DNA of 63,468 nt, the filler included, from Neolecta irregularis DAH-3 (Eukaryota), in the NCBI GenBank assembly GCA_001929475.1. It is 8 parts of 8 records of this genome, joined end to end, with 100 filler letters (N's around TTAATTAATTAA, not from the genome) between each part and the next. Parts side by side here need not be neighbours in the genome. Positions count along the whole stretch, not along the records: positions 12,582 to 29,845 come from LXFE01000835.1; 7 more parts are not named here. One strand, written 5' to 3'. Position numbers and translations under genes: made by a program. Shown piece by piece: positions 12,582 to 54,243 of this stretch. Below the pieces are notes generated by a model. It was given only the letters and a program-made list of their open reading frames with translations. It was not told where the DNA came from and did no database searches. How positions within the stretch are numbered: the first letter of the stretch is position 1; every line of letters begins with the position of its first letter.

Positions 12582-13164
12582 GTCGATGCCACTTGCTGTA
12601 CGATGACAGTCGTTCTTGCCAGAATACACACGAAAAAAGAGAAGGGAAAGAGCAGACTAGTCTGTGGTAAAAGATTGATTTCTTTCAATTCGAGGGTCAA
12701 TTTTGTTTACTAGCAATGCCAACGATATTCTGACCATTGCAACGAATCAACGATGCCACAGCGGCCAGATTTGTTCAACGACTGGCCCAATCTGGCCACG
12801 CCAGAGTTCATAGCCCTGGACGTGGCTCACATCGCTCTAGTATGCAAATAATAGAAATTAGACGAAGAAATATTATTGGAGACTGCTCTATTTCCTTGAG
12901 CTGGGAGGTGTGCAGATCCTTGGTCAAACACAGGACTTCGTGCAGACCAAATTCCATAATTCAGTGCAGTTGTCACCCGATACCGTCGGATCAGTTATTT
13001 TTTGGGCCGTATGTCATCTATAACAAAATGACATTGCAAATTTTGAGATAATCTGGAAAAGTTTAGCATTTCCAATTTCTATTTAATGCTATAAAATCTG
13101 CCAAGACTTGTAATATTTCACAAATCCGAGCTCATATGGTTTTATCTGGTTCGGTTGACTGATA

Positions 13165-13750
13165 TCAATGACACGCCATACCTTTCGAATCCGTTGAGGG
13201 CATGAATATGTAGTAACCGAGAGTCGCACCAGTCATTACAGCAAGCATAACAAATCCCTAGATAGGTCAGCTGTGATCAAGGACCTATTACAATGCATTA
13301 CATTATAGGTCATAAAGATGAGCATGATTGAAAAACTCAAAAGAATTTGAATGCCGTAAAATATTGCTTTGATAACTTTTCGCCTTCTATTGACGTCAGA
13401 CTCGGTTTTGAGAACAATTTATACCGTCTAGAGTCCCCGGAAATTTCGGGGTCCATCAAAACTCGACCTTCATCGTCCGCATCACTACTATTATTACTTG
13501 ACCGCCGATTTGCCTTCATCCGATAAGTCTTCAACTCGAATTTCCGGCTATAGTAACGCAATCCTTCGTAGAACACACAGATCATAACGATTGCAAAAAG
13601 TGAAAGTATGAAGTTTGGAGTTCCAGAAATGTGCCATTGAGGAAACACGATACAGAGATTTTCGTAGGACCAAGTAAATAGCATGTTCATACTGCACATC
13701 GGCTTTGAGTGATCCATCCCTTCATGATGCCCATTGTGTTCATGGTCCAT
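13165..13750 (-). CDS. Ctr-family copper transporter (Ctr2/Ctr6-like)
   Basis: His/Met-rich N-terminus, CSMNMLFTW, YEGLR, MLIFMTYNG (MxxxM), C-terminal ACH; two introns. Confidence 0.92.
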
Positions 13751-13860
13751 ATCGTCGCGAACTATTCGACTACAAGAGGATTGTGGAGCCGCTCAGATTA
13801 TCTGGAGCCTATTTGGTGGGGGTGTTGAACCCTAACCACCTGCAAAACTTGAATTCACCA

Positions 13861-14190
13861 TACCACCACACCTATTTTCACTTCAATATATTACATATTT
13901 CTCAACCTTTCACTTCAAAAAGGTCTTGATATGGCACATAGTCATGATTCTGCGAGATCTCTGGGGACATCCTAATGCTAGGTGTTTTGCCTTTTCCTTC
14001 AATTAATACCTGTTGTATGTNNNNNNNNNNTTACCACCACACCTATTTTCACTTCAATATATTACATATTTCTCAACCTTTCACTTCAAAAGGTCTTGAT
14101 ATGGCACATAGTCATGATTCTGCAAGATCTCTGGGGACATCCTAATGCTAGGTGTTTTGCCTTTTCCTTCAATTAATACCTGTTGTATGT
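13861..14190. repeat. About 160-bp direct duplication flanking a 10-N gap (probable unmerged contig overlap)
   Basis: 13861-14020 is nearly identical to 14032-14190. Confidence 0.85.
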
Positions 14191-14814
14191 CGAACATTGA
14201 CTTTTTATCGATTGTCGAACTAGGGACAATGGGCTGCAGGGGTCTTAACTTACAAAGCGCACCTTGATAGGGATCAAAATAGACATACTCTTCATGCTAT
14301 GACCCTTTTCCATAGGCTTCAAACCTAGAATGCGTTTCAACCTTTTTTAAAGAAGCTACAAGCGAATCAATTGCTGCCCCCTTTTGAACACGGAGCTTTG
14401 TTCGGGCCGACCAAGAGCCGCAGATACTTTGATTAGAAGGAGTCAGAACAGATTCTCTTCCATCTAGAGCTCTAGCCAAGGCAAGAGAAAGCTCGCTAGG
14501 CCGTTTGGGTAGGCTGGATGAAAGCTACGACGATATAGTTTATAGCACAAGCCTTGCAAGCTCAACACTTGCACTCCAAATTGACCCGTAATCTGACATT
14601 TCTCCATCGGACTGACATCGAAAGTTGAAACGTCTATATAGGCCTTTCCTTTAGTCTAGACCTAACAAACTACTATATTAGCAAAAATACAGCGATATCT
14701 CGAAATGATAAATAGCGAACGATTCCGCCTTGCAAAACATTAACTCTCGACCCTCGTCCTGTCTTGAGTTTATTATTCGCTCGCTGATCAAATTATTCAC
14801 TAGCCTTTTCTACA

Positions 14815-15590
14815 ATGAAGCTCGCTAATATTTTCGCAATTGGCAGTCTCTGCCTTACAGGTATCATCGTTTCTGTTGAGATCTGACCGGTAAGCTTATG
14901 TCTCTGCGACACCAAGCAGCTACCAGCAGCAGCCGGCAATCACCCCATATATTCCAAATGTCCCTCTAGCGCTTCACAGTATGTGCGGAGAGATTTCTTC
15001 TGTTTGTGGCGCAATTCGTACCTTTTCGGATATTGAAGGTTTTCTCATGCTCCAGAGTCCTTGAGTGCACAAAACGTGCATCGAATTGAAGAGTTTTCGG
15101 TCCAGATTGTTGCAGTACTTTCCCACTACAAAACGGTTTTCTGGAGTTGTCAAGGGTTTGTCAAGGAAACCATCGTCTATGAATTCGCTATTACTCTCGT
15201 CGAAATAGCAAAAGCTTATGCCTTCTGCGAGACGCTCGCAGCAGGCTATCTGGATGAGTATGAAACCTCAGTCGGCGAGGGCCTTCTGAATCTTATCTTG
15301 CTCTTTGAATTTAAAGCGAGTGGGTTCATCGCTCTGCTTCGACAACAGTATGCTCTAAATATGCAAAACTGATCAAAAGGCTGCTTCAGATCGTTCAGCA
15401 AGGTTCCTCTGAAGTTGAGGTCAGTTCTTCCGCTAGCGCTGCCGCGTCCAGTACTGGCATAGTATCGTCAAGCACAGCGTCGGCCCAAGCTGAGGCCTCT
15501 TCCAGCGCTCAGAGCTTCGGACCCAACGGGGGGTCTTATGCTCTATTGATCCTACTTGATAAAATGTGCTATGGTTCCTTTAAATTTTAG
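14815..15590 (+). CDS. Secreted orphan protein with Ser/Ala-rich C-terminus
   Basis: Signal peptide MKLANIFAIGSLCLTAYVSA; three short GT-AG introns join the open frames; 3' end uncertain. Confidence 0.65.
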
Positions 15591-15856
15591 GAGCACAAAG
15601 TATCCTCGTTAAAGATCAGTCGGATTCCTCGGTCTGCCAGTTATTCGTGCGTTAAATACTGTAGCTGCATACATACCACTTCTGCGATTTTTTAATTCAA
15701 ACTCTTTTCTTATCGAACATAGTGTGCTTCGTCTACTGCCTATTCTGATTCCACAAGAATAGTCACGTTTCATATATGTACTGAAGTACTACTATTGGGG
15801 TTTCCTGGGTTTCTGGTACAAGCAACCCAGTCGGTCAAGGCATTATAGAAGAAGGG

Positions 15857-15977
15857 TAAGCTCGGCGCCGGTCTAACCGACACCCTCCTAAACCAGACAC
15901 AGTCTAAATATATAATAAGAATTCCATATATTGTGTCGGGTTCGGGGGGGTTGTCGGTTAAATCAGCGCTGAGCTTA
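15857..15977. mobile_element. Palindromic MITE-like element
   Basis: About 45-bp imperfect inverted arms (TAAGCTCGGCGCCGGTCTAACCGACACC / GGTTGTCGGTTAAATCAGCGCTGAGCTTA) around an AT-rich spacer; shares the TAACCGAC core with the 210-332 element. Confidence 0.65.
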
Positions 15978-16356
15978 GTGAATGTACCGCCAGCACCTGC
16001 CTTATAAATAGAGGAGGCGAAGCTGTGTTGATACGGACTATACAATAGCAAATAATAATTCCTTGGCGCAAAGGATTTTGTTCTACAAAGCAGGCTGGGT
16101 AGGGAAATTTTAAAGGAAACTGAGAGATCCTTTGGACCGCCAGATCAACTGTGGTAAAATCTCCTAGTCATCATGCCTTCCTTGAATTCTTTAAAATCCG
16201 CAATCTCTCTTATAACAAACATGAGGTATCCTTTGCCCACTGCGTAGAATGTGAAAAACAGGAATTCTCGATTCATGTCTGGTTTTTTGGAACTCAAACG
16301 AACAGCTACATCAGAGGTATGTTACCAAAATATTTATTTGCAAAACTTCAAGATCG

Positions 16357-16903
16357 TTACAAATGAAATCCTATGCAATCTGTAATCTCCCTCATGCCAT
16401 TTAAAAATCCCAACGCAACGATCATAGATCTCATGGTGCTTCTCCTCACCCATGTCTTCAACATTCTCCGAGTCTCGACCAATCCTGCTTCAGATTCACT
16501 TCCTCGACGTTTAACTTCCTTCAAATGGCGGATCATTGGAGCCATAAAAATCACAGTGAACGGAATTGCACTGGCAGTGATCAACGCGTTGAATATCATA
16601 TGTCGTCGAATAATTTGCGAGGGCGCGAAATAGGCAGCAATCCCGAATCCTATGCCGGAAAAAACCGAAAGAGGGCCAAATAACCTTTTGGCCATGTCAT
16701 ATTGAGTTGCCCATTGCTGGAGTTGACTCTGAGGCGTTCCATAGGCTAGAATTGAGGGTGTTGAAATGAACGAAATGACAAGATTTCCCCCTATTTTGTG
16801 TTACATTCACTTGAGACTTGACAAATATACCGGTGAAAAGGCTGGAGGCCAAAACGCCTGTGACTAGACCTGTAGTGTAGAAAGAAGTCTTTGATATGTG
16901 CAT
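16357..16903 (-). CDS. DUF1772 (anthrone oxygenase-like) membrane protein
   Basis: After one intron: LQQWATQYDMAK...SAIPFTVIFMAPMIRHL...LKTWVRRSTMR; four hydrophobic segments. Confidence 0.7.
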
Positions 16904-19246
16904 TCTGGAGGTGAGGAGTAATATTCTCTACTTTGATGATGACGTGATCTGCTTATAAATATAACAATACATTCACCGGCCACCAGAAAAAGATATCATG
17001 TTATTCTAAAATATGAAATTTTGATATTGTTTTTTTATGTTATTTTGCACAACACAATCAGTATAACAACCTATCCTGGAGGAAGCAACTAATGATAATA
17101 CCTATAAATTCTATAAGTAGATAGCTGGATCCTCACGTATACTCATCTTGTACCACACTGAGTATAGGTGAGATCCAATCTTGTACTATGTTGAGTATAG
17201 ATTTGGTTCAGTCTTTACTCCCTCCATTTAGAACCCTAGTATCCTACTACCCCCTAATGTAATAGGTTTAGAGAAGTTGTCTTGACTCAGTCTAAATTAA
17301 TCAAACATGTTCTTCAAGGAGATCAGGTGGTCCGTTTAGTCCGAAAGTTTATTGTGGTCAAGGGCATTCGTTCAGCTTATCTGATGAGCCGTCTTCTGGT
17401 ATTGATACTAGTAATAACGCTGTTCAATCCACGCTAACTGATTTCAAAAATTTCGAATTTGGAATTTGGTACTTCACAAGCGTGGGAAAAAAGAGGCTAT
17501 TAGAGCGTCTGAAGTGAACTAGTTTCCCATTGTTCAGAGTTCCCATATCTAGTAAAATAGATCTGCGTTGTCCGACTGAATGCTATCAGTAGTCATTTTC
17601 AATGAATAGCGCGAAACAGGTATCGATTGATTTCACGTCGATTACATCATCCTCGTCATCCCGAAATTAAATCCCTAAACTCCCTTTCACAAAACTTCTT
17701 GGCGAAGAACTGGCATTCTAGTTTTGACAAAGTTAGTCTGTGAGTTTTCTTGATGGAATTCCATTTCCACGAGTGAAGAAAATCTGAATGGAAAGCCAAA
17801 GGGGCGAGCAGACCTTGAAAGTATGATAGAACCGCAGGTTATTCTATTAAAGATACTTTTTCTTAGCCCTATATGTTTTAGCTTCCCACGCGATTTACGT
17901 TTCCCATGGATACAATAACAAACCTCTGTTTTAGTGACTTGTTTCTCACTGGTCTCGAATGACCAAAGTCCCTTTGAAATGGAAAACAAAACAGAACACC
18001 ATTCGCAAATAAATTTAAGTAGTTCAGAAAGCAATGGTACGAAACTTTGATCTCGCAAATCAAAAGAAGATTGATAAAATGCAGTGTTCTTCTCATCGAG
18101 CTAATTTGACTACTTGAGACTTTGGGAGAGCCATTTCTCGGATGCGGGGCTATTTTTCTCTCCCGGCTAGGTAATGTTCAATGCTAGTAGGATACTCAAG
18201 TTTGGCGTGTTTTATTGTTATTAGCACTGGTGAAATATTTAAAACATGACGTCAATATTGTGGGACGTTCACGTTGGGATCATCAATGTCGCACTTGATG
18301 TTTGGCTGGTTAATTCATCACTGAGACGTTTGAGCGACATTTGGAGGCGGTCGGGGAATTAGTGTAGTTTAGGGGATTTAATGACTTAATGGTCCCACGG
18401 TTGCACAATCTTTCTTTGTCTTGTAATATATTTGGCTGAAAAAGAATGGTTCTGTCAAGAGTAGCTTCTGCCGGAGGAAGTCTTGGAGAAAGGGGGATTT
18501 GACCGCATATGATGATCGAATGACGAGCATGGTGTTATAATGCCGATCAAATATCGATCTTACTGGTGGTGTTTCTCGAGTTGAGAATGGCAGTTTTACT
18601 GGTAGTCACACAGAAGAGGGGATTCCTGTTGTTCGGATAGTCCGTTGACAAGCGTCAGGCTCGCTTGAATCAGAGTGTCAGGTTCCGGTAGTTTGGCAAA
18701 GTGGCTGTTCGAGACCAGTTTCAAGTGTGATGTTTCGTTAGGAATGCACTAGGGGCGGGGATCGCATTTCGCTCAAGGGCGATTACCAGGCGATTATGGC
18801 CTGCGCACAAGAGGTTCATAGCCGAGAACTGGAGCTCAAGGAATCCAGAACGGTGTTATCACAAAGCTTGTCTTCCTGAGGAGGAGCAGTAGCGCGATCT
18901 GCTGTACTGAACGAGGAGCTACGCTAGTCTTTCGATGTTCCGGGAGAGAACGAGTGACAGGGCCAGGCCTGCGCCTGTGGACACGGGGAGATTTGCTCAG
19001 AACGCGGGGCGCGTATTTTCTGGGCCGGAGAATTAGGTTATTTTCCGAGACGGGAGGGATGCTGGGTAGACGGGGGCGGTATTCAGGGCGGGACGACGCG
19101 GGATGCGTGCGGAGAATATAGCAGCAGCAGCAGCGTTTTCACAGATCAAGAGATGCAATAGAGGAGTACAGAGGCGGAAACGTGGTGGAGTGGTTCAGCA
19201 GCAAGCGCAGCTCAGAAAAACGCACTATCCTGGATCAGGCGCTGTT

Positions 19247-19256
19247 CTATAAATAG
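19247..19256. promoter_or_regulatory. MEF2/Rlm1 consensus site CTA(W)4TAG overlapping a TATAAA box
   Basis: CTATAAATAG about 150 nt upstream of the MADS-box ATG in an otherwise GC-rich promoter. Confidence 0.6.
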
Positions 19257-19405
19257 CACCCGCCTGGCCAACGCCCGCCCGCCGTTTCTACAAAAGCTGA
19301 CTGTCGCGGCGCCTTTGCTTTTGCTGCAGCCGGACAAAGCTTGTTTGTTTCTTGTGCCGCAAACTTTGCTGCGCGCCGCCGTCCCGTCCCGCGCCGCCGC
19401 ACACC

Positions 19406-20722
19406 ATGGGCCGTAGAAAGATCGCCATCAAGCCTATCGTCGATGACAGAAATAGGTATTTAGCCTATAGCCGTTTCTTTGCCTGATCCGCTTATAGATC
19501 CGTCACCTTCCATAAGCGCAAGAACGGCCTGTTCAAGAAGGCCTACGAACTCGCCGTGCTGTGCCAGGCAGACGTCGCGCTGATCGTGTTCGGCCAGAAG
19601 GGAAAGCTGTACGAGTTCTCGAGTTGCGAGATCCACGAAATCCTCCACCGCTATGCTGAGGTGCGCGTTCTGTCACGGGCAAGACACTGACAAGCTCAGT
19701 CCGAAGGCGAGCCGAGGGAGGTGAAGCGGCTGCAAGACGTATCTCTGTACTTTGCATATACTGAGTCCTAGTATCGGGAAAAGCTCGGGGACCAGGACGA
19801 AGACGACGACTTTGACGATCCAGAAAATATATATGGCACTCCTCCGCTAGTCCACAAGGCAGTGGATTCGTCAATGTCCACTCTTCCCATGGCTATGAAC
19901 GGCTCCTCGAACGAAGGCGGCTCCCACATGTCGACGCCCAGCCTGCACAATATCACTCCTCCAATTCCAAGAATAGACCAGTCTCCGCGCATCCAGTCGC
20001 AAGTGTATGGCCAGAATATCGGATACTCTGCGCCCGGATACAATCAGATACATGCTGCTGCCGGCTTCCCGCCGGGGCTAAACCATCCGGGATCGTATTA
20101 CCAGCAGTCACAGCAGTACTATTCTCACATACCCGTATCTGCCTAGAGGTAACAAAAAGACTGATAGTAGGAGCCTCGGCGACACCAATCAGTCTCGTTT
20201 CCGCAGCCAAACATCCCGCAGCAGCACATTTATACACGAAACTCTATCGATCCCATTATCACGAATCGCGACGATTGCCCTCCTAACAAAAACCGGACTC
20301 GAGAAACCTCATATTTGCATCCTCAGCAGCAACAGCCGTTGTATTCCCGCGACCATTTCCCGCCACGATCCCAATCAGTTGATCTAACCGCCCTCTCTCG
20401 CCCCCGGTTGAGTGTCCAGATCCCCCTCGAATCGCGGCAGCAGCGCCACAAGTCCGAAGAAGCCTCTGATGACAGGACAATGACAAAGTCCGCGTATTTG
20501 CCACATCCAAGTCCTACAACAGCCGTCTACCACCCACCCGCACCCCCAGATCCCACTCCTTTATCCAGCATCCCACCAAGTCGTTATGCAGGGCCTTTCA
20601 GTCCCGCAGGCGATATTTATCAAGGTCTATTTGGGAAATCAGATACCCAGTACAAACGTCAGAGAGACGACGACGAAGACGGTGCAAGTGAAGGCAAACG
20701 GTCGAGAGTCGAAGGCGATTGA
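19406..20722 (+). CDS. MEF2-type (Rlm1-like) MADS-box transcription factor
   Basis: [61 protein letters not shown] docking-like RPRLSVQIP; four introns. Confidence 0.93.
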
Positions 20723-21327
20723 CGGGGAAACGGGACTCTGTGCATATTCGTGTTGAATATTTTCTCTCTCGATTTTGTGGTATTTCGGGCTTGCTTTTTT
20801 GTCCCCCTCTGTTCTGCTGCTCTTCATTGATATAGGAAGGGCTTTATATTTGTAGTTTTGCATCTTGTTTCTTACAAACGGTTGAAAAACTTTTTGTGAG
20901 TTGTTTGTTTGAGGCGGTGTGGAAAGGAGCCGGCCGCACTGGTATTTACGTCATCTATGACGCTATATATGTTTGGGATATTGATTGATGGGTAGCGAAC
21001 TAGTTGTGTGAGTTTAAGGGAATGTTTTGCCCTTTGGGCCTAGACTCAAATTTGGAGCATTCGGGTCCTTCCCACGTTTGTCGAAACGAGTGTAAAATTA
21101 TCTTATCTTGTCTCAAGATACCTTGGTTGAACAAAACAGAAATGGAAGCAATGTTTATCACTTTCAAAGAGAATCGAGTATTCATTGGCTTTTAAATAAC
21201 TCGAAAGATTTTCAGTAGGGTATGTATGCGGATCTGAATTCGCTATTCAAACTGCACTGGTCACTTATAACGTATGAATAAAAACAACCGTCCCCTAAAG
21301 AAACTTGAAAAAAAACATTTATTATTC

Positions 21328-22420
21328 TTAGCGTGATTCCAAGTCTTCCAACATCACTGGATGGGAATTCATCTCCCTATCCTCCTGAGAATTTAATCTC
21401 TCTTCTTCAGCCTTCGGTTTGTGCAAAGGTAGGAACGAGCCTTCTGTTCGCTCAAACTCATCCTCCAAGAATCGATATGCACGACCAGCATAGTGAGTGT
21501 GCACGAGACTGGGATAGTACTGTCGATACGATAACCAAGCCATCAGCGCACCAATAGCAGAACCAACGATAACGTCAAACGCGTGGTGGCGGTAGTCCAT
21601 TGATCGAGAGATCGCACACAGGGAAGCAGCCATCAATGGGCTGGATGGTAGTCAGAATAGTAAGACAAACAAAGGGTACACTAGTAATATGAACGTCTTG
21701 TACACGTACCCTCGTTGGTCCAAGAGACGGATCTTGCCGGCCAGGAAAAAAAACAAGAACCCTTCGCCAGCCCAAGACGCTTCCACATTAGCTCGTTTGA
21801 TTATAGCAAAAGGCGCGTACAAGAACTATGGCCACTTGGAAATGAGCGAAACCCATCTTTTAAAATAGCATGATTGGTTTGCGTACATATATCGCTCGTC
21901 GCAAGTCCGAATGATATGGGGTTTGTTAGCTGGTTGGGTAAACAACGAGCAATGAAATCTTGCAATTTAGCAAAACTATCTCTTCCTGGCAAAATGAATA
22001 CCTGGTCTAGGTCTTCCCACGGTATTCTTAAAGATTGCAGTGATAGTAATTGCCGCACCAAGAGCCAATAAACACCCTAAAAGAGCAAAATGGCCTTCCC
22101 ACAAGCGCTCCCTAAAGCTTGTATTTCGTCCCGTAATACTAGGTTCAACAAGAGACCAGATTAGCATGATCAGAGCTGGACCCAAAAATGAAATTATGAA
22201 GAGCAACCATAAAGGAATTCGTTCAGGATCAGCCATTGGATATTGTATCGATGTGTCAGTTAGTGAGAAGTGCCGGTGATATGGTTCTGTTCGGTCCAAA
22301 CTTATAAAAGCAAAGATGAAGATTAAAACCAAGACGTAATCGACAAGGTACGTGAATGCTGATCAATGAGCTACTGTTTACGGAAATAGAGGTACGCTTT
22401 CGATGATGTCGTTTGGCCAT
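21328..22420 (-). CDS. PAP2-family lipid phosphate phosphatase (DPP1/LPP1-like)
   Basis: KNTVGRPRPDFIARC, SFPSGHSS, SRSMDYRHH catalytic motifs. Confidence 0.92.
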
Positions 22421-22959
22421 TGGAGTTGTCCAATAAGGGGGAGATTGACAAGCCTTAAACCCGAGTCGCATTATTGTCTGCAGCGCCACTCTAATTGTAA
22501 GATCCTGAGCTGCGCTCAGAAGTCGTTTTAGATTGTCAAAAAGATGTGAGATTTCGGTAGGGGAATTATCAATTCAATTTTCAATGACCATAAAACATAT
22601 CCAGCCTTAATGGTCCCTTTGAGAGTAACAAGTGTGCGGACTCTACACTCAAGGTAGACTTGGTTGAATACGCAATTATGGGGTGGTTACTTGTGGTACA
22701 GGTAACTACTATTCGTATACTCGGTATAAGCCTGGTCCGCTAGCGGGGCGGCCGGGCCTGACTCTACTTGTATGTTTGCTTCTCTGTAAGTGTTGAAGCC
22801 TGTCACAGGAAAACGGTACACGTAGTATTTTCTGGTTGTCTGATTGGGTTTTCTATTATTATACGCTCCCTTGGTTTACTACAATGCGTGGCTCATACTT
22901 GTAAAACTATAAGTAGTCATGTAGCTGCCTCTTTGTACGTCGTTGGATAATGTTTGTCA

Positions 22960-23200
22960 GCAGACAGGTTGTAGCTGTAGAGTCTTTGAGGTTTTAGGAT
23001 TCTGGAAACATAGAGGAAAAAGAGGAAAAAGATTCTTTGATTCTTAGCGGGATGGATAGAGCATTATCCAACCATCCTACAAATGTGCAGATACAGGACT
23101 ACTTATAGATTTACAAGAATGAGCCATGTCATTGTAATAAAATCAAGGAAGAGAAAACCCATCAGATAACCAGAAAACACCATGTGTACGAGTTTCTTGC
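22960..23200. repeat. Diverged dispersed repeat, second copy at about 44470-44720
   Basis: Shared blocks TGTAGAGT.TTTGAGG, GATTCTT.GC..GGATGGATAGAGCA.TATCCA and TACAGGACTA in the same order. Confidence 0.6.
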
Positions 23201-23620
23201 GACATGCTCTATCCATCTACACAACTAAAGATCGAGCGGCGCCGAAGAAGACAGGGCCAGTCGAGGTGGAGACTGGGGATAAGGCGAGCGGGGGTTGAGG
23301 ATAGGAGAACCCCTAGCCCTAAGGTCTTGTGGATGGCATCGACGCGACGACAGAGGGGCTGGCGGAGTGTGATGGAAGTGCTGCTCCAGTTGTCGCAGTG
23401 GGAGAGGGGCTGCACCAGTCAGGGTTGATCTAAGTCCATGGACTGAAAGCCCATGGACCCTAATGGGCTAGGCTAAGTCCATGGTCAATCCACTGGTGGT
23501 AGATGTTATCGGAGTGGCAGGTATATCAACGAGTGGGCTTACGGTTCCGTACAATTACTTAGGTTAGAACATACCGGGTCTTATTCGTACTTCGGGCGTT
23601 GACTTACAATTCGTTACGAT

Positions 23621-24653
23621 ATGTGGATCATTTGTTTGATTCTCGTTATACGCCTGTCATCGAATATGCATGCGACTGCAGACGATTTGGCTCCTGTATA
23701 AGACTTTTCCATAATAAATGTTTCAGATTACTAGACCAAAATTCATTCGCATAACGATTATTTAAAACCTCGTCCTCTTTTCGATGCATTGATTTGGAAG
23801 TGCGGGAGCCTTGAAGCGGATGTATGGTTGAGAGATGGGGCGCTATACGTAAGTGATCAGATGAATCCTGATTGACTGTGCAGGTTGCGCATGAGGAAGA
23901 AGACATCAATACTAATCAGACTCTATCTTCATTATATCTCGAGCCTTTGAAATCGATATTGACGCAGAACATGGATCATGATGGCAAGAGGTAAGCAATG
24001 ACACTGAAGTCTCTCATCTCAATTCAAATAGCTCTATTTATCCAGATTACCCAGAAGTTTCGCTCCAGTTTCTTATTGAATCAAAGTACCCAACTAAACT
24101 CGAAGATCCCGGAGAGATTGAGAAAATTGGGATAGCCACTGTCAAAGCTATCGAAGAAGCTTTAAAGCCACTTAATAACTGGTTGACATCTTACTCGAAG
24201 CCAACCGGTGTGTCGAAAGGTCCAATAACAGCGGTATTGACAGTATTTCAATACCATTGAGAATATTCTGACTTTTAGGGGAATTCCCCAGTTACATATA
24301 TTTCACAACTATCGTCTCGTAGTTACTTCTGCGACGCCCCGTTGGACCACCTCACAAACGTCTATTCCCTTGATATTTCCCCCTTAGCCTCAGCAAGTTG
24401 GTTAGGTACGGTCAAACGGGATGGATACCTAGCTCCCTCGGAGTGTGAAATCGAGCACATCTGCGAGCTGATTTCGGCCGCCCACAAAAGTAACCTTACA
24501 ACCCGATTCTTTGGAACTCCGGACATTCCGATAATACAGGAAAATATCTGGCAGATCCTGTTGGAGCAAGGAAGTGATTGGTTGAATGCGGATGATCTGC
24601 CCAATGCTACAAGTTTCTATAGAGAGTTTATCAAACAGAAGTCGGTTCATTAA
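23621..24653 (+). CDS. AIM6-like PLC-like phosphodiesterase with signal peptide
   Basis: IHSHNDY..PRPLFDAL, SLEADVWL, LYVAHE, TLSSLYLEPL, GPITAVLTG, RFFGTP, WLNADDL. Confidence 0.85.
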
Positions 24654-24664
24654 CTTTAAATTTA

Positions 24665-24938
24665 GTAAGCAAGCAAATCTAAAGGACAAAAATTGGCAAG
24701 TAGGCGAGTACAAAAACGTAGACTTTACTTTTAATATATCTTTTCTTTTACAGTTAGCCTATACGCTGCAATGCTTACAATATGGTGAGACGCCCTAGAA
24801 ATCTATCAAGCAAGCCCATAAAAGCAAGTCCAAGGAGGCAAGTAAAATACCAAGTCCAAGCAAGAATGTCCAAAGGCCTGAAATATGCAGGCAAGTCCAA
24901 AGCCCAGACTTGGACTTGCTTACTTGTTAGCAACTCTG
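24665..24938. repeat. GCAAGT-rich transposon-end relic; related copy at about 29236-29400
   Basis: GACAAAAATTGGCAAGTA.GC.AGTACAAAAACGTAGACTT at about 24684 and 29321; many CAAGT/ACTTG motifs. Confidence 0.65.
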
Positions 24939-25622
24939 CCTTTAGGTCACAAGCTTTTATCGTGATATTTCAGAGGCGCTTACTTTCTACAAATAGCGAG
25001 ACCTGCCTGGCCAGTTTCCTTTGTACATGAAGTCAAATGATTATTTCTCTAGTTCGTTTGTGGATTGCCTAACACTTAAGCATACTTTCATTTTCCTGAA
25101 ATGATATAAAGATCACCATTCTGAAATCAGAGTGCAGGCGAGAATGGATTTGATTTCAGGTGAAGGACAGCTACCGAAGCCAATACAAGTAAAAATTCCT
25201 CGATCCTTACACCGGCCGATAAATATCAGACGAATACAGCCATCGATTTGGTTATACAGACCCTGTCCAAATATTCCAGATCCTCTAGAAATCTAAAATT
25301 TAATCCGTTTCTATTCTTGGAAATTAATGTCCTAATCTACGCAGTTCTCATCTATAACAGATGAAGCCTGTCAAAGTCTAAAGAACGTCTTTCCAATCAT
25401 ATTTTTCAAATATCATCCACTTGAGTAATGCACTGTATTTACCGAGTGACTTCTTGGCAACATAATCGAGACGAGTACAGATGATTGATTACGTTAGGCA
25501 CTCACTTTGTCGTAAACGTCAACCAAGTAAAAATTCTGGTGTTGAATTTTTTGCGGGTTTGTTTACTTAAGCAACCACTACGAAACCAACCATCGTGAAG
25601 CAACCACGAACCAACCCTATGA

Positions 25623-28168
25623 ATGACATCTCCATATTCAGACAAACGCGGGTGGCGCAGATCCAGACTACCAGACTATCCAACAGCCATTCAGGTGAGT
25701 TTTGGAAAAGAAAATTCGTGATGGATTTTAGGATTACGATCTTTGCAAATCAGTTGGAAAAGGCGCGTTCGGTGAAGTATTTAAAGCTCAATTATCCCAC
25801 GGCGAGAGAAGGGGCCAGAAGGTCGCAGTCAAAATTGTATTTTAGCTAGCAGTTGAGACGTCTGTTGACATATGCTAGATCGATAAAGGACTTCTCAATA
25901 CACCTCTCCGAAGACGTAGAATCGCAAATGAAGTCTCTATCCTCTCGAAACTTTCACATCCCTCAATCCTCCAACATTTGACCTCATTTGAAGATGAGCG
26001 ATGCGTTTATCTCGTCAGCGAACTGTGTTCCATGGGCAGTTTGTATCGATATCTTGCCGATTTCCCGGATGGACTAGAAGAAGATGAAGCAAGAGGCGTA
26101 ATGAAGAGTCTAGCCCAGGGTGTTGAATATCTTCATTCAAAACGAATTATGCATAGGGATTTAAAATTGAGTAATGTGCTTCTGAATTCGGATATGACTG
26201 TGGTATGCAATCATTCTCTTTCCGTCTTATTTCTCCTTCGAAGCGAAAGCTAATAAATTAATTCAGAAAATTGCGGACTTTGGTTTAGCTACTCGTATTG
26301 ATCTTCGAGAAGATGATGAGCTCACATTATGCGGAACTCCAAATTATATCTCACCGTAAATTCTTACTTGAAACATTTTAGTGCCTGATCGATTGTAGTG
26401 AGGTTATTGCTCGACAACCATATGGTTTAGAAACGGATATTTGGAGTCTAGGATGTATGTTTGTCTGTCTTCTTACCGGTCGCCCGCCATTCCAATCTGA
26501 TCAAGTTCAAGAAACGTTATCTCTTGTTTCCCATGGTTCTTATACGTTACCGAAACATTTATCGCACGAGACGAAAGATTTAATAAAAAGACTGTTGCAG
26601 TTGGTATGTCCAGCTATTTCTTGCAGGGTCATCAATTTGAAATTGACGAATTAGGATCCAAAGAAACGGCTACCGGCATCTCAAATACTTCAACATCACT
26701 TCTTTTCGCCGTCATTATCAATTCTCCCTCTTCCTGAGCTTAAAGAATCTCCGAAACAATACTCGTGGTATTCGAAGAAAATTCTCCCTGAGAAAGCAGA
26801 AGAGACCTTTGCGAAATATGTTCATCCGGACCGACGGAAAGGTCTTAATACCGTCATTGAAGAGATCCTCGATTCACGGAAACTCTCGGAGCATTCTATT
26901 AAATCACTCCCGATCCCTGAACAGACTAGTCCGATATCGAAACTACGGAAACCGCAAAATCGATTTGCAAAAAGTCCCAGCGAGAGGATATTTGTTACTC
27001 CAGCTCCCCCACCTCCTCCACGAGCGTTTCAGGGCGTCGAAACGATGTTGGAAGAGTTTGAATGGCAAAGAGATGCGCCTCCTGTATTAGAGAGAGCACT
27101 CTCGCGTCGAAGAGGGAGGGAAAATGAAGGTCTGAGCACAGTACTGTCCGAATTAGAGGGTCTTCAAGGCCGAAAGGAGAAGTCTACAGAGCGCGTGGAG
27201 CGAAGGACTAGTTTTGATGTGAAATCTTCCCGACATGATCGTACAGTTTCTTTGTCACGACAACTGATCTTCAATAGATAATCCGCCAAATATTCTGTCA
27301 AATTTGCTGGCCCGGTCTCCTCAAAAGCTCCCCGCCCCTCATTCACCGGTATTCAAATACCGTTTCACAACAACCGATATCAAACCATTAACGCAGCGCA
27401 CGAAAGCTGGGCTAATTATTGTCGACGAAAACGGCATTGTTCTCGATTTGGATGATTTGAATTGTTCCGTTTCAATTACAGGCGATGGTGAAAATGTTTC
27501 AGTCGGACGTAGACGATTTCCCCTTGACCAACTTCCCGCGAAATATCTGTACGCTTACCGATATGCGAGCAAATTCATAAGTGTAATCCGCGCAAAAACC
27601 CCTAAAGTCTATTTCCCCCTTCACAGAACTTTGATTTTGACGATTCTAGGTAACTGTTGATTTGCCTGGCGGACGTGTCCGTGTTATGCTCGATGGGACG
27701 TTTGAGTCGCGAATCCAGGTCAAGTCGCACACAATACTTGTCCGGTTATCTGCAGATTCCAAATTTTTAAAAATCCTTGTCTCAGATTCACTTGTTTGGT
27801 CCGGAGATCCGGCGTTTTTACCGCGCAAATTTCTGAAAATATGGAGTAAGACGAGGAACTGGAGGAAACAGGTTCTCTCTCTTATCAATGCATCTTCGGA
27901 AGACGAAGACAATGAAGACAATGAGAAGGATATTGCGAATGAAACAACCGCTCGGTATATGGAAAATATTGGTTGGTGTACACTTGACTCTTGCAATCGG
28001 TGGGGACTGTTGTTTGCCGACGGCGTGAGATGTAAGATTGACGAGAAACGGGAGAAAGTTGTGTGGGTAGATTCTTCAGGTCGAAAATCGGTTTATGAAA
28101 TGAACGGGATGCCTCGATGGGTCAAGGAACGGGTTGGTTTGTTGGGCGAAATGAAACCGCTTTTTTGA
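25623..28168 (+). CDS. PLK4: Polo-like kinase 4 (PLK4/SAK)-type Ser/Thr kinase with cryptic polo box and PB3
   Basis: [57 protein letters not shown]1-like IKPLTQRTK...[31 protein letters not shown]3-like YMENIGW...FADG...MPRWVKERV. Confidence 0.85.
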
Positions 28169-28849
28169 TACTTGTAAATGATATGCGCGGCTGCGATATT
28201 GGGCTGAATTAATCTCTCGATTGACTGTATTTTCTAATGAGCTTTCATGAGTAAAGCGAAGATATGAGGGAGTAAGGTTCCTTGATGAATATGAAAGTTT
28301 TGCTGGAGGGATCTACCAAGAACTACTTGTTAGGTTCGAAGCAAGTTCGAAGACAGGGTCTCTTATAGTCCTGTTTAGAGATGCATATGTGTGAAAATGT
28401 CCCTGCCAGCTAGCTGAGGGAAGAATGATCAACTTTAACAGGTCACAGAAATATCTCTTCAGCAAATGGTTGTGCTCGGTAAAGAATCAAGGTGACCACA
28501 AAACAAAAAGACGTCGAAATTTAATGAATAAATAAATAATTATTTGGGTACTGAGTGGTACGACAGATAAAATGCCTCTGCGGTACCGTTTATCTCTGGT
28601 TAATTAGCATCCCAACTAAATTAAATTATCATGACTGAATGTTTCAAATTGTTTCACATCCAAGAAAAATTGCAATAGTGTGCCGAACTTGAAAATTCTG
28701 CCAAGCCAAAGCCTCTAAGCTAAGCTTGTATTAACTATATAGACATTGGTAAACTGCTTCAGCTCCTAAACTTCCTCAGAGTCTCTGGAAGTGGTTCGTC
28801 TTACCTTTGCATCTGAACTTCTGCAATGTCTGCATCTTCCCCTGCTTTA

Positions 28850-28935
28850 ATCTCAATGAATTATTTTGGACCGTTGGAAAGCCCTCATCAAGGCGCATCC
28901 GCTGGTGGTAATTAAATTTTCATGTGATGTGTTTT
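28850..28935. repeat. Dispersed repeat fragment (copy at about 35300-35385); 29751-29845 also matches about 35047-35090 and 35420-35451
   Basis: TCTCAATGA...ACCGTTGGAAA.CCCTCATC.AGGC.CATCCGC; CAGGCTGTTA.GTTGTATGGCGGTTTGGC; CTTTGACTTTCTTGTATTGAATTTGTTGGCA. Confidence 0.7.
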
Positions 28936-29945
28936 TTGCAGTAAGGAAACACTTCTGTAGGATTCTCTGAGTGACTCGTGTTCAATACTATGTCCATCAT
29001 GATTGGAGCCCATACGCGACGCCCATGGAAATTCCTATTTCAAGTAACCCTAACCTATATCATTAGATTATTAAAGCACTCTGAAACCACACAGCAGTAT
29101 TCTCAGGCTTTGGAACATATGTGCAAATGATTTCATTATGGAGATAAAATGGCATATATCTCTTCAATCGCAATCTATAATATCTTGCCTGTTTTGATGT
29201 GTCATTTGAGTCATATCAAAATCCTTATTCCATGAACAAGCAGACTTGCTAATAAGTAAACCTTTCATGTCAAATTTGCTTGCTTACTTGCTTTGTAAGC
29301 AAGTAAGCAAGCAAGTCTGGCAGACAAAAATTGGCAAGTAAGCAAGTACAAAAACGTAGACTTGCTTGAATGGACTTGATAGACTTGATAGTTTAAGACT
29401 TTTAATGACATTGAATATTTTCTTAATACTTCTACCAAATATCATCTGCATTGTCCCAGGATATATTATCATATTGAAATGTAAATTCCAATCATCAATA
29501 TGGATTCCAGCATACCTCAGGATCTTACCACAGCAAATATTTCAACTTTTCAAGACCAGACACCTTCAATATCACCCAGTGAGATTGAGATTGGTATCAT
29601 TGGTATATCCACCCCTGGTCCTGAACTTGAAAATGATGATGGCAACTATGATGGCATTGATTGGAACTGACTACCAGATTACTAAAGACCCTATAAGGAG
29701 CTCCAATGAACTCCAAGCTTTATTTGGAAGTATGGCTATTGTATTCAGACCAGGCTGTTATGTTGTATGGCGGTTTGGCAGTTTCCTCCATGTGATACTT
29801 CTTCAAAGGTCCCCCTTTGACTTTCTTGTATTGAATTTGTTGGCANNNNNNNNNNNNNNNNNNNNNNNNNNNNNNNNNNNNNNNNNNNNTTAATTAATTA
29901 ANNNNNNNNNNNNNNNNNNNNNNNNNNNNNNNNNNNNNNNNNNNN

Positions 29946-35694: not shown

Positions 35695-36695
35695 TGATGC
35701 AGCAAGATGATAAACATCAAAAGGACCACCTCCGATACCTGTCCCCGCTGATGATCTATCGCTGTAAAGATTCTCTGGTAAGGGATTGAAGTTGCTTGGT
35801 AAGTGACCCTGCCCAGGAGTGGAAGATGGTTCTATGAAGTGATTCCCATCCTCGTCAATTGTAGGACGGCCTCCTACCTCTGTATCAGTGAAATGATCAA
35901 CCGGGAATAGATCATTGAGTAAGAAACTGGAGGTGCCAGATGGCTGTCCTGACCCTTTTCCATAGCCATTAAGGATCTTTGGCACTTTATGAGATACAAC
36001 TTCGGTTTGCACTTCAAAAACCTTCCGTTTGGTTGCTTTACGGTTGTGGCTTTGAGTGACTTTCGTTGCGAGGCCTGATGCTTCATTCCTTGGTGCTGAC
36101 CAATGTTTGATCCCAGGCGATTCAAGTATTCCTCCGTTCTCAGGAACTGGACGCGCAAGGTTTACAAGCTCTATGCGTGCCCAAAGTTCTTGTTCTTTTA
36201 AATCGTTCTTTCCTGAAATTTGGGCAATGATATCCTTGGCCTTGTCTAGATAATGTGAACGATCTTCTCTGCGGTACTAGTATATTAGTGCAATCAAGAG
36301 TGCAGGTATTCACCAATGCCGCCACAGAGTCTTTCAACGCTGTACGACGTGATCCGCAAGCATCGAATGAGAAAACAAGCTTTGTTTCTGGCTGTAAACG
36401 AGGATCACATCCATCTAAAACGAGTGCAACGATCAGGAAGGGAGTTCCGTACAGCTTTTTGATAGCATTGTAAGCTGATGGTGTACAAATCGGAAGTCCT
36501 AATTTAGGTTTATTTTCGAGCAAGAGTTTCCACTCGTCTACTATTTGCTGTACTGGTTTTTCGATCACGAGCGAAGTTTCTTCAGCCTGATGTGATGCAG
36601 CAAGATGAAAAACCGCAGAGGCAACAAACCATACAGACCTGGGAGAATAAGCACAAGTTTTAAGCGACACAATACCATGCAAACAACATGTTCAT
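35695..36695 (-). CDS. Secreted orphan protein, probably internally repeated; truncated by gap
   Basis: TATATAAAG upstream; MNMLFAWSVWFVASAVFHLAAS after one intron; last exon open to the gap, where HLAAS recurs. Confidence 0.55.
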
Positions 36696-37934
36696 ATAAC
36701 GGTCGTCGTGTAAGGAGAGGCTGTACTAGAAGTACGAGTTGAGACACTTGGGCTTTATATATTGCTCCTTTCGGACTCTTAAATATCTGTCTCAATATCT
36801 GTAATGACTACTTTTCAGGAAACCTTTGTGTCTCACTCGGTGACGCAGAAGGCCACACTCTGCTGTGGTCTAATGTGTTGAGACCCGAGGCTGGAGTTGT
36901 GAGTGTGTGAGCGTTCAGGTGTTCCTTTTTGTCGCTCGTGGACTTGGGTTGGTATGTTGATCGTAAGGCGGCTACAAGGTAACTACGTTTATAATCAATC
37001 TACACGGTTAAAGTCCCTCTGCTAGTCAGACGTGGACCTACTTGTATAGTAATTCCTTGAGGCGCGCCTCGCCGCTGCCTATTGGCTCCTTCCTCTACGG
37101 AGCCTCATCCGTTCCGTACATCTCCTCATTGAGCTCACTCGCTCTTCTTGCGGGGTATTTGCTCGATCGTGCCGTGAGGATATTGCCGCTCTGGGTGTCA
37201 AGGACGAGATTGGCTTCTCCTTTGAGCTGCCGCGCTCCTCTTGCGGGTATCGCGTTCGATCGCCGGTCAATGGGATGGTTACTCCCATTGATAGGGAAGC
37301 GGCCAACATCCCTATTGAGCTTCCTAGCTCTACTTGCGGATGGAGAGGTCGATTGCACTTTGAGGACGTCATTGGTTCGTTTGCCGGTGGCGGTGGCGGT
37401 GGTTATCCGTCTCTGGCTGTGGGGGTTCTGGGAATCCCCACAGAGTGTGCTGGTGCGGGAATGTGATCAATTGTTTCATTTCCTTTTGTGAAATTGTGGG
37501 GATTACCAAGCCCCCCAAGGCAGCCCAGGCCCGCCTCGCTCCCCTTGTCCGCCTCTCTCACCCGCCTGACTAGTTTGCCTTCCCCGCCCCGCGCCCATCT
37601 CTCCTACCTCACACTCCCATCTCGCCTCGCGCATCTCTCTCCTACCTCGCGCGTCCCCCTCACGCTCCTGTCTTGCGCGCCCCTTTGGCCTGCTTGACCC
37701 ACCCATCTTTAGAGCTCATCAAGCTGGTATTTATTGAGGGCAATATTTCTTATTCTATTCAACTCATGGTACTTCTTTGCCCCTAAACCCTTCTTATCAC
37801 CTACCTGAAATGCCTGGATTGAAGACTGTAAATATCTCTACTGGGCTGTGGCTGCAAAGGATCATAGTCCTCTGTAACAGACATAACGGAGGATGCAATT
37901 AAGAAGGTTGGTAGATTTATAAGTGTGGGTCTGA

Positions 37935-37989
37935 TGAGGCTGGTGGATTTGGTGGTGAGGCCCGACGATTCCACAGGTGGGACAGAACA
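37935..37989. mobile_element. Isolated TIR end of a TGTTCT-terminated (Ginger-like) element; related end at 39900-39964
   Basis: Reverse complement TGTTCTGTCCCACCTGTGGAATCG...CCTCACCACCAAATCCAC matches 39900-39964. Confidence 0.65.
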
Positions 37990-38729
37990 TTTTGATGGCG
38001 TCCAAACACATCCACCATGAGACAGGGAAAGACAAACAGTTTAGAGTGCCTGGAATGGGTATAAAGCGTGTGGCACCGCTGACGAGATATTGACTGCCAT
38101 ACCAAAATTCAACTCAAAGTCCGTCAACCTACTCACCTGTCCATTTTCCTCTTTGACCGGATCCAGGATGATGATGGCGGGTATTTCCTTTTCTTANNNN
38201 NNNNNNNNNNNNNNNNNNNNNNNNNNNNNNNNNNNNNNNNTTAATTAATTAANNNNNNNNNNNNNNNNNNNNNNNNNNNNNNNNNNNNNNNNNNNNTATA
38301 AGGGACATTAGATAGAAATGTATATAAAGGCTGCGCTCACATATCTTAGTCTAAGCTCACACCCCTACAAGCTTAGATTAAGGAAATATAACCTGATCTT
38401 ATTGTACTCGAGCTCCAACACTTACAGACACCATATTTTAACAATGTATTGCAGCAGGGATATGTATATGCAATACGTAAGAGAATTGAATTCATGGTCC
38501 AGTCTAATCCATTCTCGTACTTGTCGGAGGAAATGCTAGTGAACAACACTACTCCCTGAAACCTTTCAGCTTGTAAATCATTGGTGCGACAAAGAGAATG
38601 ATGCCAGGTGGAATTAAGCCATTTATATCTGCTCATGTCGATCTCACGCTATTAGTACAGATAAATCTCGCACATTGTCGCATGGAGAAACCATTGCCAG
38701 CATAGCACCTTTCCGCATCTTCTATCAAA

Positions 38730-47590: not shown

Positions 47591-47674
47591 GGGGCTATGG
47601 CGCAACGGTAGCGCTTTCGACTCCAGTATCGTCCGGACATCGAAGGGTTGTTGGTTCAAATCCTGCTGGCCTCA
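47591..47674 (+). tRNA. tRNA-Trp(CCA) with 12-nt intron (47627-47638)
   Basis: Acceptor GGGGCTA/TGGCCTC, D-arm GCGC/GCGC, anticodon stem TTCGA/TCGAA with CCA at 47623-47625, TTCAAAT loop, T6 terminator directly after. Confidence 0.93.
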
Positions 47675-53099: not shown

Positions 53100-54243
53100 C
53101 TAAAATGTTGGTATGGCAATAAAACTAGAGACATTCCTCTTCTCCACTGAAGTAAGGATGGTTGATTGACTGCTTAGCGCTGATTCTTTCGGCAGGATCA
53201 TAAGCAAGCATCATCTAAGTTTAGCGGTCTTTAGAGAATAGGAAATGTAGACCTCCAAAAGCTCGACCCCAGCAGGCTCCAGACCAGGAACGCTATTTGC
53301 AATGTCTTTCCGACTCCATTTTGGAAATGAGGTCTTGTAGTCGGGAAGACTCGTCACTCCAGGCCAAATCTCTTCATCAGGAGTTCCAAGAAGTCTACCT
53401 CGTTAACAGAACGACTGAAAGATGACATGAACCTGAAGATTTTGAATATCTCGTCAATTTCCGAGTCTCCAGGGAATAAAGGTTTCCTCGTAACCATCTC
53501 CGCAAAGATAGTCCCAACACTCCACATATCAACGCCTGTAGAATACTGTCGGCCGCCCAATAAGATCTCAGGTGCTCGATACCAAAGTGTAACAACCTTC
53601 ACAGTAAATGACATTTTTCCTTTTGAATGCAAACCTCATGAGTATAAGTCCTCAAAGGAACTCCAAAAGCTCTAGCTAACCCAAAATCTGCCAGCTTCAG
53701 ATTTCCTTCCCGATCGATCAATAAGTTTTGGGGCTTTAAATCTCGATGTAAAATCCTGTGAGAATGACAATATCGAACACCTTCCACCAATTGACTCATA
53801 AACCGTTTAATCATATCTGGTCCAAGGCCTAAATGACTCGGTATAGTCTCCATATACTTCTTCAAATCAAGGTCGAGGAATTCAAAAACAAGGTAGAGAC
53901 GAGTGTCTTGATGGACGATATCTAGCAACCTAGACAAATTTAGGTTTAAGACAAGTAGAATAGTATACTGAACAATGTTATTGTCTCGCATTTCTTTCAA
54001 GAGGGATATTTCTCGAATAGCTGTTGACGGGACGCCTTCATCCTCCGCTTCCAATCTAATTTTCTTCAATGCGACAATCTTATTGTTGTTTTTGAGATCC
54101 TTTGCTTTGTAGACGACTCCATAGGTTCCTGGGAGTTAGTACAGTTTTTCAAATTGGCTGGAAAACAGGTTTCGATTGTTTTGTGGATTAAATCGAAGAG
54201 ACATACCTTCTCCAATCTTTTCAATCTTCTGGTATCTGTCCAT
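53100..54243 (-). CDS. cdc2: Cyclin-dependent kinase 1 (Cdc2/Cdc28)
   Basis: [75 protein letters not shown]. Confidence 0.97.

Follow-up and report, generated by a model that had tools for sequence, protein, structure and literature searches.

Can PLK4, which sets off the duplication of centrioles in animals and is treated as a centriole marker among opisthokonts, persist as an intact gene in a fungus without reported centrioles? The question is raised by a gene on the plus strand (25623-28168) of a 63,468-nt stretch of DNA from Neolecta irregularis DAH-3 (the window), which consists of parts of 8 records of this genome joined together, the parts not necessarily being genomic neighbours; the gene falls in the part from 12,582 to 29,845, which comes from LXFE01000835.1. 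Neolecta belongs to the Taphrinomycotina, a subphylum of the ascomycetes. Two published papers state that yeasts have lost PLK4 and that chytrids alone have kept it (PMC6070874, PMC6559791), and the second names chytrids as the only fungi in whose genomes proteins of centriole biogenesis were identified (Ito et al. 2019, PMC6559791). Flagellum loss is said to coincide with centriole loss (PMC1599754). A literature search, which left most subscription journals uncovered, found nothing relevant linking PLK4 with Neolecta, Pneumocystis or Ascomycota. The Neolecta protein already carries the label PLK4 by automatic annotation and is undiscussed as far as the literature was searched. An earlier note on the window, made from the sequence alone, had read the gene as a PLK4/SAK-type kinase retained by vertical descent. 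We conclude, with a probability of roughly 0.85, that the gene is a PLK4 orthologue, that its architecture is complete and seems functional and that it has been vertically retained.

The intact nuclear gene runs from an ATG at 25623 to a TGA at 28166-28168 and is made of 8 exons with 742 codons. The joined coding sequence of 2229 nt has a lone stop at its terminus, and the spliced product is identical, letter for letter, to a 742-aa NCBI protein (P0001) recorded as PLK4 of Neolecta irregularis DAH-3. Read without splicing, the plus-strand stop-to-stop frames over 25623-28168 are split into pieces bearing kinase motifs. All exons lie on the plus strand. Exon 1 (25623-25694, 24 codons) is followed by a 37-nt intron with the ends GTGAGT..TTTTAG, exon 2 (25732-25836) carries the Gly-rich loop and the VAVK lysine, and exon 3 (25879-26202) holds the kinase core with HRDLKLSN and by itself matches Pfam Pkinase with an E value of 2.8e-25. 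Exon 4 (26267-26355) encodes the DFG motif and activation loop, exon 5 (26399-26603) the kinase C-lobe (Pkinase, E 7.3e-13), and exon 6 (26655-27240), in which no Pfam family was matched, the end of the kinase domain and the linker. Exon 7 (27278-27606) holds the end of the linker and the first polo box, with 31.6 bits to Plk4_PB1 and E 2.4e-5 to the PLK4 cryptic polo box (CPB), and exon 8 (27650-28168) contains polo box 2, a short acidic spacer, polo box 3 and the stop. The 7 introns measure 37, 42, 64, 43, 51, 37 and 43 nt in order and are GT..AG in all cases; they resemble the short introns elsewhere in the window, and the GC content of the PLK4 coding sequence (0.446) is similar to that of the window (0.427).

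The earlier note had described an intact gene with host-style short introns, and this description stands, with introns of 37-64 nt as elsewhere in the window. It also placed the start and end of the gene correctly, and all the motifs that it quoted were found on the plus strand at or near the places it gave: in the kinase, a 10-residue motif at 26330-26402 that spans an intron, a 13-residue motif at 26424-26462 and GRPPF at 26478-26492; in the C-terminal part, IKPLTQRTK at 27379-27405 and a 29-residue segment at 27523-27652; and at the end of the protein, YMENIGW at 27956-27976, FADG at 28013-28024 and MPRWVKERV at 28109-28135. Antisense to exon 8 there is also a 148-codon open frame on the minus strand (27646-28092), most likely a chance frame.

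The kinase domain, of the polo family of Ser/Thr kinases, occupies residues 27-282 (25738-26705, plus strand, introns included), where Pfam Pkinase matches the whole protein at 234.8 bits (E 1.5e-69). The catalytic motifs are complete, with GKGAFGEV at residue 33, VAVK at 55, HRDLKLSN at 151, DFG at 171 and the activation segment at 187. The Neolecta protein is probably an active kinase. When the sequences in the PDB were searched with the kinase, human PLK4 was the top match at 247.5 bits, and the best PLK1 scored 201.7 bits, that is, 46 bits under PLK4; PLK2 and PLK3 reached 190.3 bits, MARK3 176.2 bits and the best Aurora A 159.0 bits. After the kinase comes a linker of about 200 residues without known Pfam family (residues 283-482; 26706-27342, plus strand).

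Beyond the linker, the protein ends in three polo boxes, all encoded on the plus strand. Polo box 1 (PB1) of the CPB covers residues about 483-569 (27343-27603), polo box 2 (PB2) of the CPB residues about 570-661 (27604-27922, with the 43-nt intron included), recognised by predicted fold only, and polo box 3 (PB3) residues about 668-742 (27941-28165), recognised by a weak single-sequence match, a profile and predicted structure. With exon 7 alone, PB1 is matched by Pfam Plk4_PB1 (PF18190) at 31.6 bits (E 1.9e-7; cut-off 26.4), and the same exon searched against PDB sequences retrieved 7 distinct PLK4 CPB sequences with E values from 2.4e-5 to 3.2e-3 and nothing else below 0.1. The alignment of exon 7 with the PLK4 CPB displays the human motif that the earlier note had given. 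The resemblance exceeds anything due to chance by a wide margin. Pfam POLO_box (PF00659) gave no match on the whole protein at E values up to 10. A word-indexed database search with the C-terminus alone returned the Neolecta protein itself as its sole match, because the C-terminus is too divergent for shared 5-residue words.

Clade-specific profiles were built from the C-termini of 14 of the 15 members of the ascomycete clade described below (P0022 lacks the anchor motif); they contain no animal or chytrid sequence and were scored for a library size of 1.84e9 (Z = 1.84e9). The clade-only PB1 profile reached animal PLK4 with E values of 6.6e-11 in a mollusc, 5.2e-10 in a frog, 3.3e-9 in a mammal and 9.4e-6 in a fly. 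The clade-only PB3 profile matched residues 881-951 of a 959-aa mammalian PLK4 (E 1.8e-4) and the Basidiobolus protein (E 2.8e-5). At the level of sequence, PB1 and PB3 are thus the boxes with support, and PB2 is not.

An AlphaFold2 model of residues 462-742, made from a 59-row alignment that included animal PLK4, had a mean predicted local distance difference test (pLDDT) value of 89.9 and contained three units, each of six strands followed by a helix, at about residues 498-567, 569-657 and 670-741 of P0001. The modelled part of the linker is its last 21 residues (462-482), of which residues 462-479 had pLDDT values below 50. In a Foldseek search of the PDB, ranks 1-11 were all PLK4 CPBs from human and Drosophila (E 1.1e-7 to 4.9e-6), with template modelling (TM) scores by target of 0.60-0.71 and root-mean-square deviations (rmsd) of 3.1-5.6 Å; the polo-box domains (PBDs) of PLK1 and Cdc5 appeared from rank 12 on, with TM about 0.3 and rmsd 14-16 Å. 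A VIA-align structure comparison over 966 chains placed the human PLK4 CPB at Z 16.4 (rmsd 2.9 Å over 174 residues), the Drosophila PLK4 CPB at Z 14.9 (3.2 Å, 173 residues) and the CPB of ZYG-1 at Z 12.3 (2.8 Å, 156 residues). The third unit matched human PLK4 PB3 at Z 12.2 (1.5 Å, 75 of 76 residues) and Drosophila PLK4 PB3 at Z 11.9 (1.7 Å, 76 residues). The PLK1 PBD gave Z about 12 with an rmsd of 13 Å or more over about 153 residues, which indicates that single boxes fit and that their arrangement does not. In the predicted structure, PB1 and PB2 are accordingly seen end to end like those of PLK4, and not as a Plk1 clamp.

Because the first alignment contained animal PLK4, a control model was made from the 15 ascomycete-clade rows only, without animal or chytrid rows. 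It had a pLDDT of 84.7, with a Z of 17.1 for the CPB and 12.4 for PB3, and its matches were unchanged. A complex prediction with two copies of residues 483-661, run without alignment and without controls, gave a score of 0.16 (mark 0.32), which speaks neither for nor against a homodimer through the CPB. Protein-atlas feature scores were 0.83-0.87, which is under the trust level, and the top structure row was a PLK4 cluster at TM 0.47; both serve as leads only.

We then looked at where the gene stands among its relatives. The named-protein search considered the best 120 of 3247 matches at E <=1e-30, among 8000 candidates scored. Among these listed matches, the protein of Basidiobolus ranarum was best (351 bits), six Pneumocystis species (P. 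carinii, P. wakefieldiae, P. murina, P. macacae, P. oryctolagi and P. canis) scored 325-348 bits, many chytrids and Blastocladiomycota about 286-340 bits, a partial Endogone protein 278 bits and animal PLK4 at most 279 bits. Beyond Neolecta and Pneumocystis no ascomycete, and no basidiomycete at all, was named among the best 120 of the 3247. PLK4 is found in Basidiobolus and Endogone besides Neolecta and the six Pneumocystis species, and early-diverging ascomycetes have kept it in at least two of their classes. Plk4_PB1 was above its cut-off in 16 of 17 relatives scanned with Pfam, the exception being the partial Endogone protein; PB2 was above cut-off in Basidiobolus and two chytrids and sub-threshold (18.0-19.7 bits, cut-off 26.9) in 5 of the 6 Pneumocystis proteins. 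The Pneumocystis PLK4-type kinases (P0003-P0005, P0015-P0017) are 785-847 aa long, have Plk4_PB1 scores of 31.8-38.5 bits and carry the NCBI labels 'hypothetical protein' or 'Polo kinase'. Exhaustive HMMER scanning across 1.84 billion representatives yielded a list of 150 proteins, and 31 of the 125 that were new were examined with Pfam: 21 had Plk4_PB1 and/or Plk4_PB2, 7 were multi-kinase and 3 showed a kinase domain only, and a Plk1-type polo-box domain was found in none of the 31.

A maximum-likelihood tree was inferred from 51 rows, drawn from 245 proteins, over 762 columns under LG+C20. It separated animals from the fungal side with an SH-like approximate likelihood ratio test (SH-aLRT) value of 100. 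One clade, with support of 100 and a stem of 0.97, united Neolecta with the six Pneumocystis species and eight clusters known from read assemblies; within it Neolecta was sister to the remaining members (support 81). When Basidiobolus and Endogone, the remaining non-flagellated fungi, were constrained to group with this clade, the log-likelihood fell by 1.68 units and the approximately unbiased test gave p-AU 0.427; vertical descent is therefore not rejected. The position of the ascomycete clade among the fungal PLK4s is the one to be expected from vertical inheritance with many independent losses in terrestrial fungi. The eight clusters (P0014, P0022, P0024, P0026, P0032, P0033, P0128 and P0135) form a well-supported group adjoining Pneumocystis; they share less than 50% mutual identity, come from read assemblies only and lack the N-terminus in every case. 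PLK4 is therefore retained in an unsampled and diverse fungal lineage as well.

In its order of parts (kinase, linker, PB1-PB2 cryptic polo box, PB3), the Neolecta protein is the same as animal PLK4/SAK (human PLK4, Drosophila Sak), whose kinase is the closest to it in the PDB and with which it shares the PB1 helix motif LP.KY...Y.YAS.F..L.R.K.PK. It differs from animal PLK4 in its host, which is without reported centrioles, in its length (742 aa versus roughly 760-1090 aa in the animal sequences used), in a PB1 without the long loop insertions of animals, in a PB2 that is unrecognisable by sequence, with a CPB identity of about 20%, and in the lack of a DSGxxT phosphodegron, a motif that was not found in the Neolecta linker. 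The DSGxxT/S phosphodegron serves control by SCF-betaTrCP/Slimb. Every one of the 7 animal rows carries it at about 20 residues past the kinase domain, and none of the 16 fungal rows, which include chytrids with centrioles, does so at that place; to judge from these rows, it looks like an animal innovation rather than a family-wide trait of PLK4. As Neolecta PLK4, like the other fungal PLK4s examined, is without this degron, its level must be limited otherwise.

The PLK4-like proteins of chytrids, Blastocladiomycota and Basidiobolus share with the Neolecta protein the fungal side of the tree, the missing degron and the three-box layout. They are unlike it in having boxes that are clear to Pfam (PB1/PB2 63.7/89.5 bits in Basidiobolus, 54.3/77.6 bits in Powellomyces), and the hosts, Basidiobolus excepted, are flagellated and have centrioles. 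In contrast to these proteins, the ascomycete clade stands on a long stem (0.97), and its PB1 and PB2 are compact. The closest named proteins in architecture and in the tree are those of Pneumocystis (P. carinii T552_01101, P. murina PNEG_01384 and four others), which have in common with Neolecta the motif KY.F.T...Q.TK, a second 16-residue motif and the terminal PB3, whereas they are longer (785-847 aa), have a longer low-complexity linker and show 32-33% whole-length identity to Neolecta; Pfam detects their PB2 weakly (18.0-19.7 bits in 5 of 6) and that of Neolecta not at all. Plk1, Cdc5 and Plo1 have the kinase family and the polo-box fold in common with the Neolecta protein, but their two boxes clamp a phosphopeptide, whereas Neolecta has a PLK4-like end-to-end pair and a third box. 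The CPB of Caenorhabditis elegans ZYG-1 matches the model too, more weakly than PLK4 proper. ZYG-1, whose kinase is divergent, counts as a functional analogue.

Several results weigh against reading the gene as a complete and vertically retained PLK4. On the whole protein, Plk4_PB1 scores 22.3 bits, under the cut-off of 26.4. Exon 8 has PB3 of mouse Sak and human PLK4 as its top four matches in the PDB, over 67 residues, but the matches are weak (E 0.16-0.52). For PB2, the Pfam model (PF18409) had no match in Neolecta, in exons or in the whole protein, the clade-only profile picked up no animal PLK4 (all below 11 bits), and a profile built without Neolecta gave the Neolecta PB2 just 16 bits; the evidence for this box is its predicted structure, in which AlphaFold2 may be repeating PLK4 CPB structures met in training, so that the models are strong evidence and not independent evidence. 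The tree was built without a Plk1 outgroup, the group in the p-AU test was chosen after inspection of the tree, and the end branch of Neolecta is long (1.47 versus a median of 0.42). A conserved docking site on the spindle pole body is argued against by Drosophila GFP-Plk4, which when expressed in Schizosaccharomyces pombe is described as forming cytoplasmic foci and not localising to the spindle pole body (PMC6559791). The absence of centrioles in Neolecta is itself drawn from a general statement on Ascomycota and not from work on Neolecta. Set beside the evidence above, these points leave most of the earlier note in place: the kinase scores and the polo-box arrangement are of PLK4/SAK type and not of Plk1/Cdc5/Plo1 type, none of the outcomes named there as refuting came about, as the C-terminus matches PLK4 polo boxes and the kinase scores lower against PLK1 and Aurora A than against PLK4, and vertical retention agrees with a clade shared with Pneumocystis inside the fungal PLK4s and with the p-AU of 0.427. 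The comparison with PLK4 polo-box models that it had proposed gave a match above the cut-off for PB1 in exon 7 and no Pfam match for PB2.

Four other explanations of the locus were weighed. The first supposes a reduced centriole-type module at the nucleus-associated organelle of Neolecta and Pneumocystis, in which PLK4, together with remnants of STIL/Ana2 or SAS-6, would carry on its ancestral job on a structure in which a centriole can no longer be recognised. All three partner-binding polo boxes are conserved across Neolecta, Pneumocystis and the read-assembly members of the clade; PB3 is the STIL-binding box in animals, and the best match of the Neolecta PB3 is human PLK4 PB3 with the STIL coiled-coil; Basidiobolus, too, retains PLK4 with strong PB1 and PB2. 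We nevertheless regard such a module as improbable. Published surveys report no centriole-biogenesis proteins in fungal genomes outside chytrids (PMC6070874, PMC6559791).

It is very unlikely that the gene is a decaying or functionless relic surviving in a few slowly reducing lineages. The long Neolecta branch (1.47) and a PB2 diverged past sequence recognition would suit a relic, but the frame is open across 8 exons with canonical splice sites and intact catalytic motifs, the PB1 helix motif is common to Pneumocystis and the fold is predicted with high confidence, and the gene persists in Neolecta, in six Pneumocystis species and in 8 clusters that are less than 50% mutually identical. Contamination of the contig from a flagellated fungus or an animal seems to us scarcely credible. 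Many of the best matches are from chytrids, and the Neolecta genome presumably comes from field-collected fruiting bodies. Yet the protein groups with Pneumocystis, another lineage of Taphrinomycotina, with support of 100 and outside the chytrid and animal groups; the GC content and the very short introns match those of a 63-kb window of housekeeping genes; and the identical protein is entered at NCBI under Neolecta irregularis, so the host is, as the earlier note had it, an ascomycete and not a flagellated fungus. Finally, the possibility that this is the usual mitotic polo kinase of the fungus, of Plk1/Cdc5/Plo1 type, whose polo-box domain has diverged, can be discounted almost entirely. The one fold common to all polo boxes (PLK1 PBD Z about 12) and protein-atlas 'POLO box' clusters at 0.86-0.87, leads only, might point to it, but it is contradicted by the kinase scores (46 bits better for PLK4), the POLO_box search without a match at E up to 10, the superpositions (rmsd 13 Å or more for the PBD versus 2.9 Å for the PLK4 CPB), a count of three boxes and not two, and the 0 of 31 scanned representatives of Plk1 type.

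The other genes of the window are ordinary eukaryotic housekeeping genes. They encode eIF3i, a patatin-like lipase, an IQ-motif protein, an ABC transporter, a HECT ligase, a class II aminoacyl-tRNA synthetase, a CDK1-like kinase and a nucleotidyl transferase with a GMPPB-like C-terminus. An exon of the CDK1/Cdc2-type kinase (53602-54135, minus strand) scores 196.8 bits to human CDK1 and lies about 25 kb past the PLK4 gene in the joined window. The N-terminal part of the HECT ubiquitin ligase (41399-43303, minus strand) matches the AZUL zinc-binding domain of E3A/UBE3A (E 9.5e-10), a domain known mainly from animals, and an exon at 58487-59050 on the plus strand matches DUF1365 (E 6.8e-30), a family known mainly from bacteria. 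ARAGORN called a tRNA of undetermined type with the four-base anticodon 'ccag' at 47591-47674 (plus strand), which may be a misread intron-containing tRNA. The G+C content is 0.509 at 18001-20000 and 0.491 at 36001-38000 versus about 0.42 elsewhere, and the latter segment has a strong AT skew (-0.168).

If the gene is, as we conclude, a vertically retained PLK4, its polo boxes would likely be what brings the kinase to its substrates, and not phosphopeptide binding of the Plk1 type. Its place of action is a more tentative matter. In centriole-less cells PLK4 would act at the nucleus-associated microtubule-organising centre (MTOC), the spindle pole body, a proposal to which we give somewhat less than an even chance; there, and with similar reserve, its task would be to license duplication, or else to regulate the capacity for nucleating microtubules, once in each cycle. 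What is left of the odds goes mostly to another acentriolar role, for example in ascospore or ascus development. We consider it doubtful, though worth stating, that Neolecta and Pneumocystis are living intermediates in the passage from centriole to spindle pole body, in which duplication of the organelle would still be controlled by PLK4, possibly with remnants of STIL or SAS-6. If this were true, licensing of the fungal MTOC would ancestrally have been the task of PLK4, and would have remained so well after flagellum loss; the kinase would then have been dropped in separate events in fission yeasts, in budding yeasts, in filamentous ascomycetes, in basidiomycetes and in most zygomycetes.

Intact, conserved PLK4 in two ascomycete classes, and its presence in Basidiobolus and Endogone, breaks the one-to-one link between PLK4 and centrioles and implies many late, independent losses. 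These fungi offer a natural system for studying the work of PLK4 in cells that lack centrioles and the replacement of the centriolar centrosome by the spindle pole body. Selective inhibitors of the PLK4 family exist. Pneumocystis, which lacks centrioles, is a pathogen of humans and animals that does not grow in routine culture, and its PLK4 is a candidate drug target.

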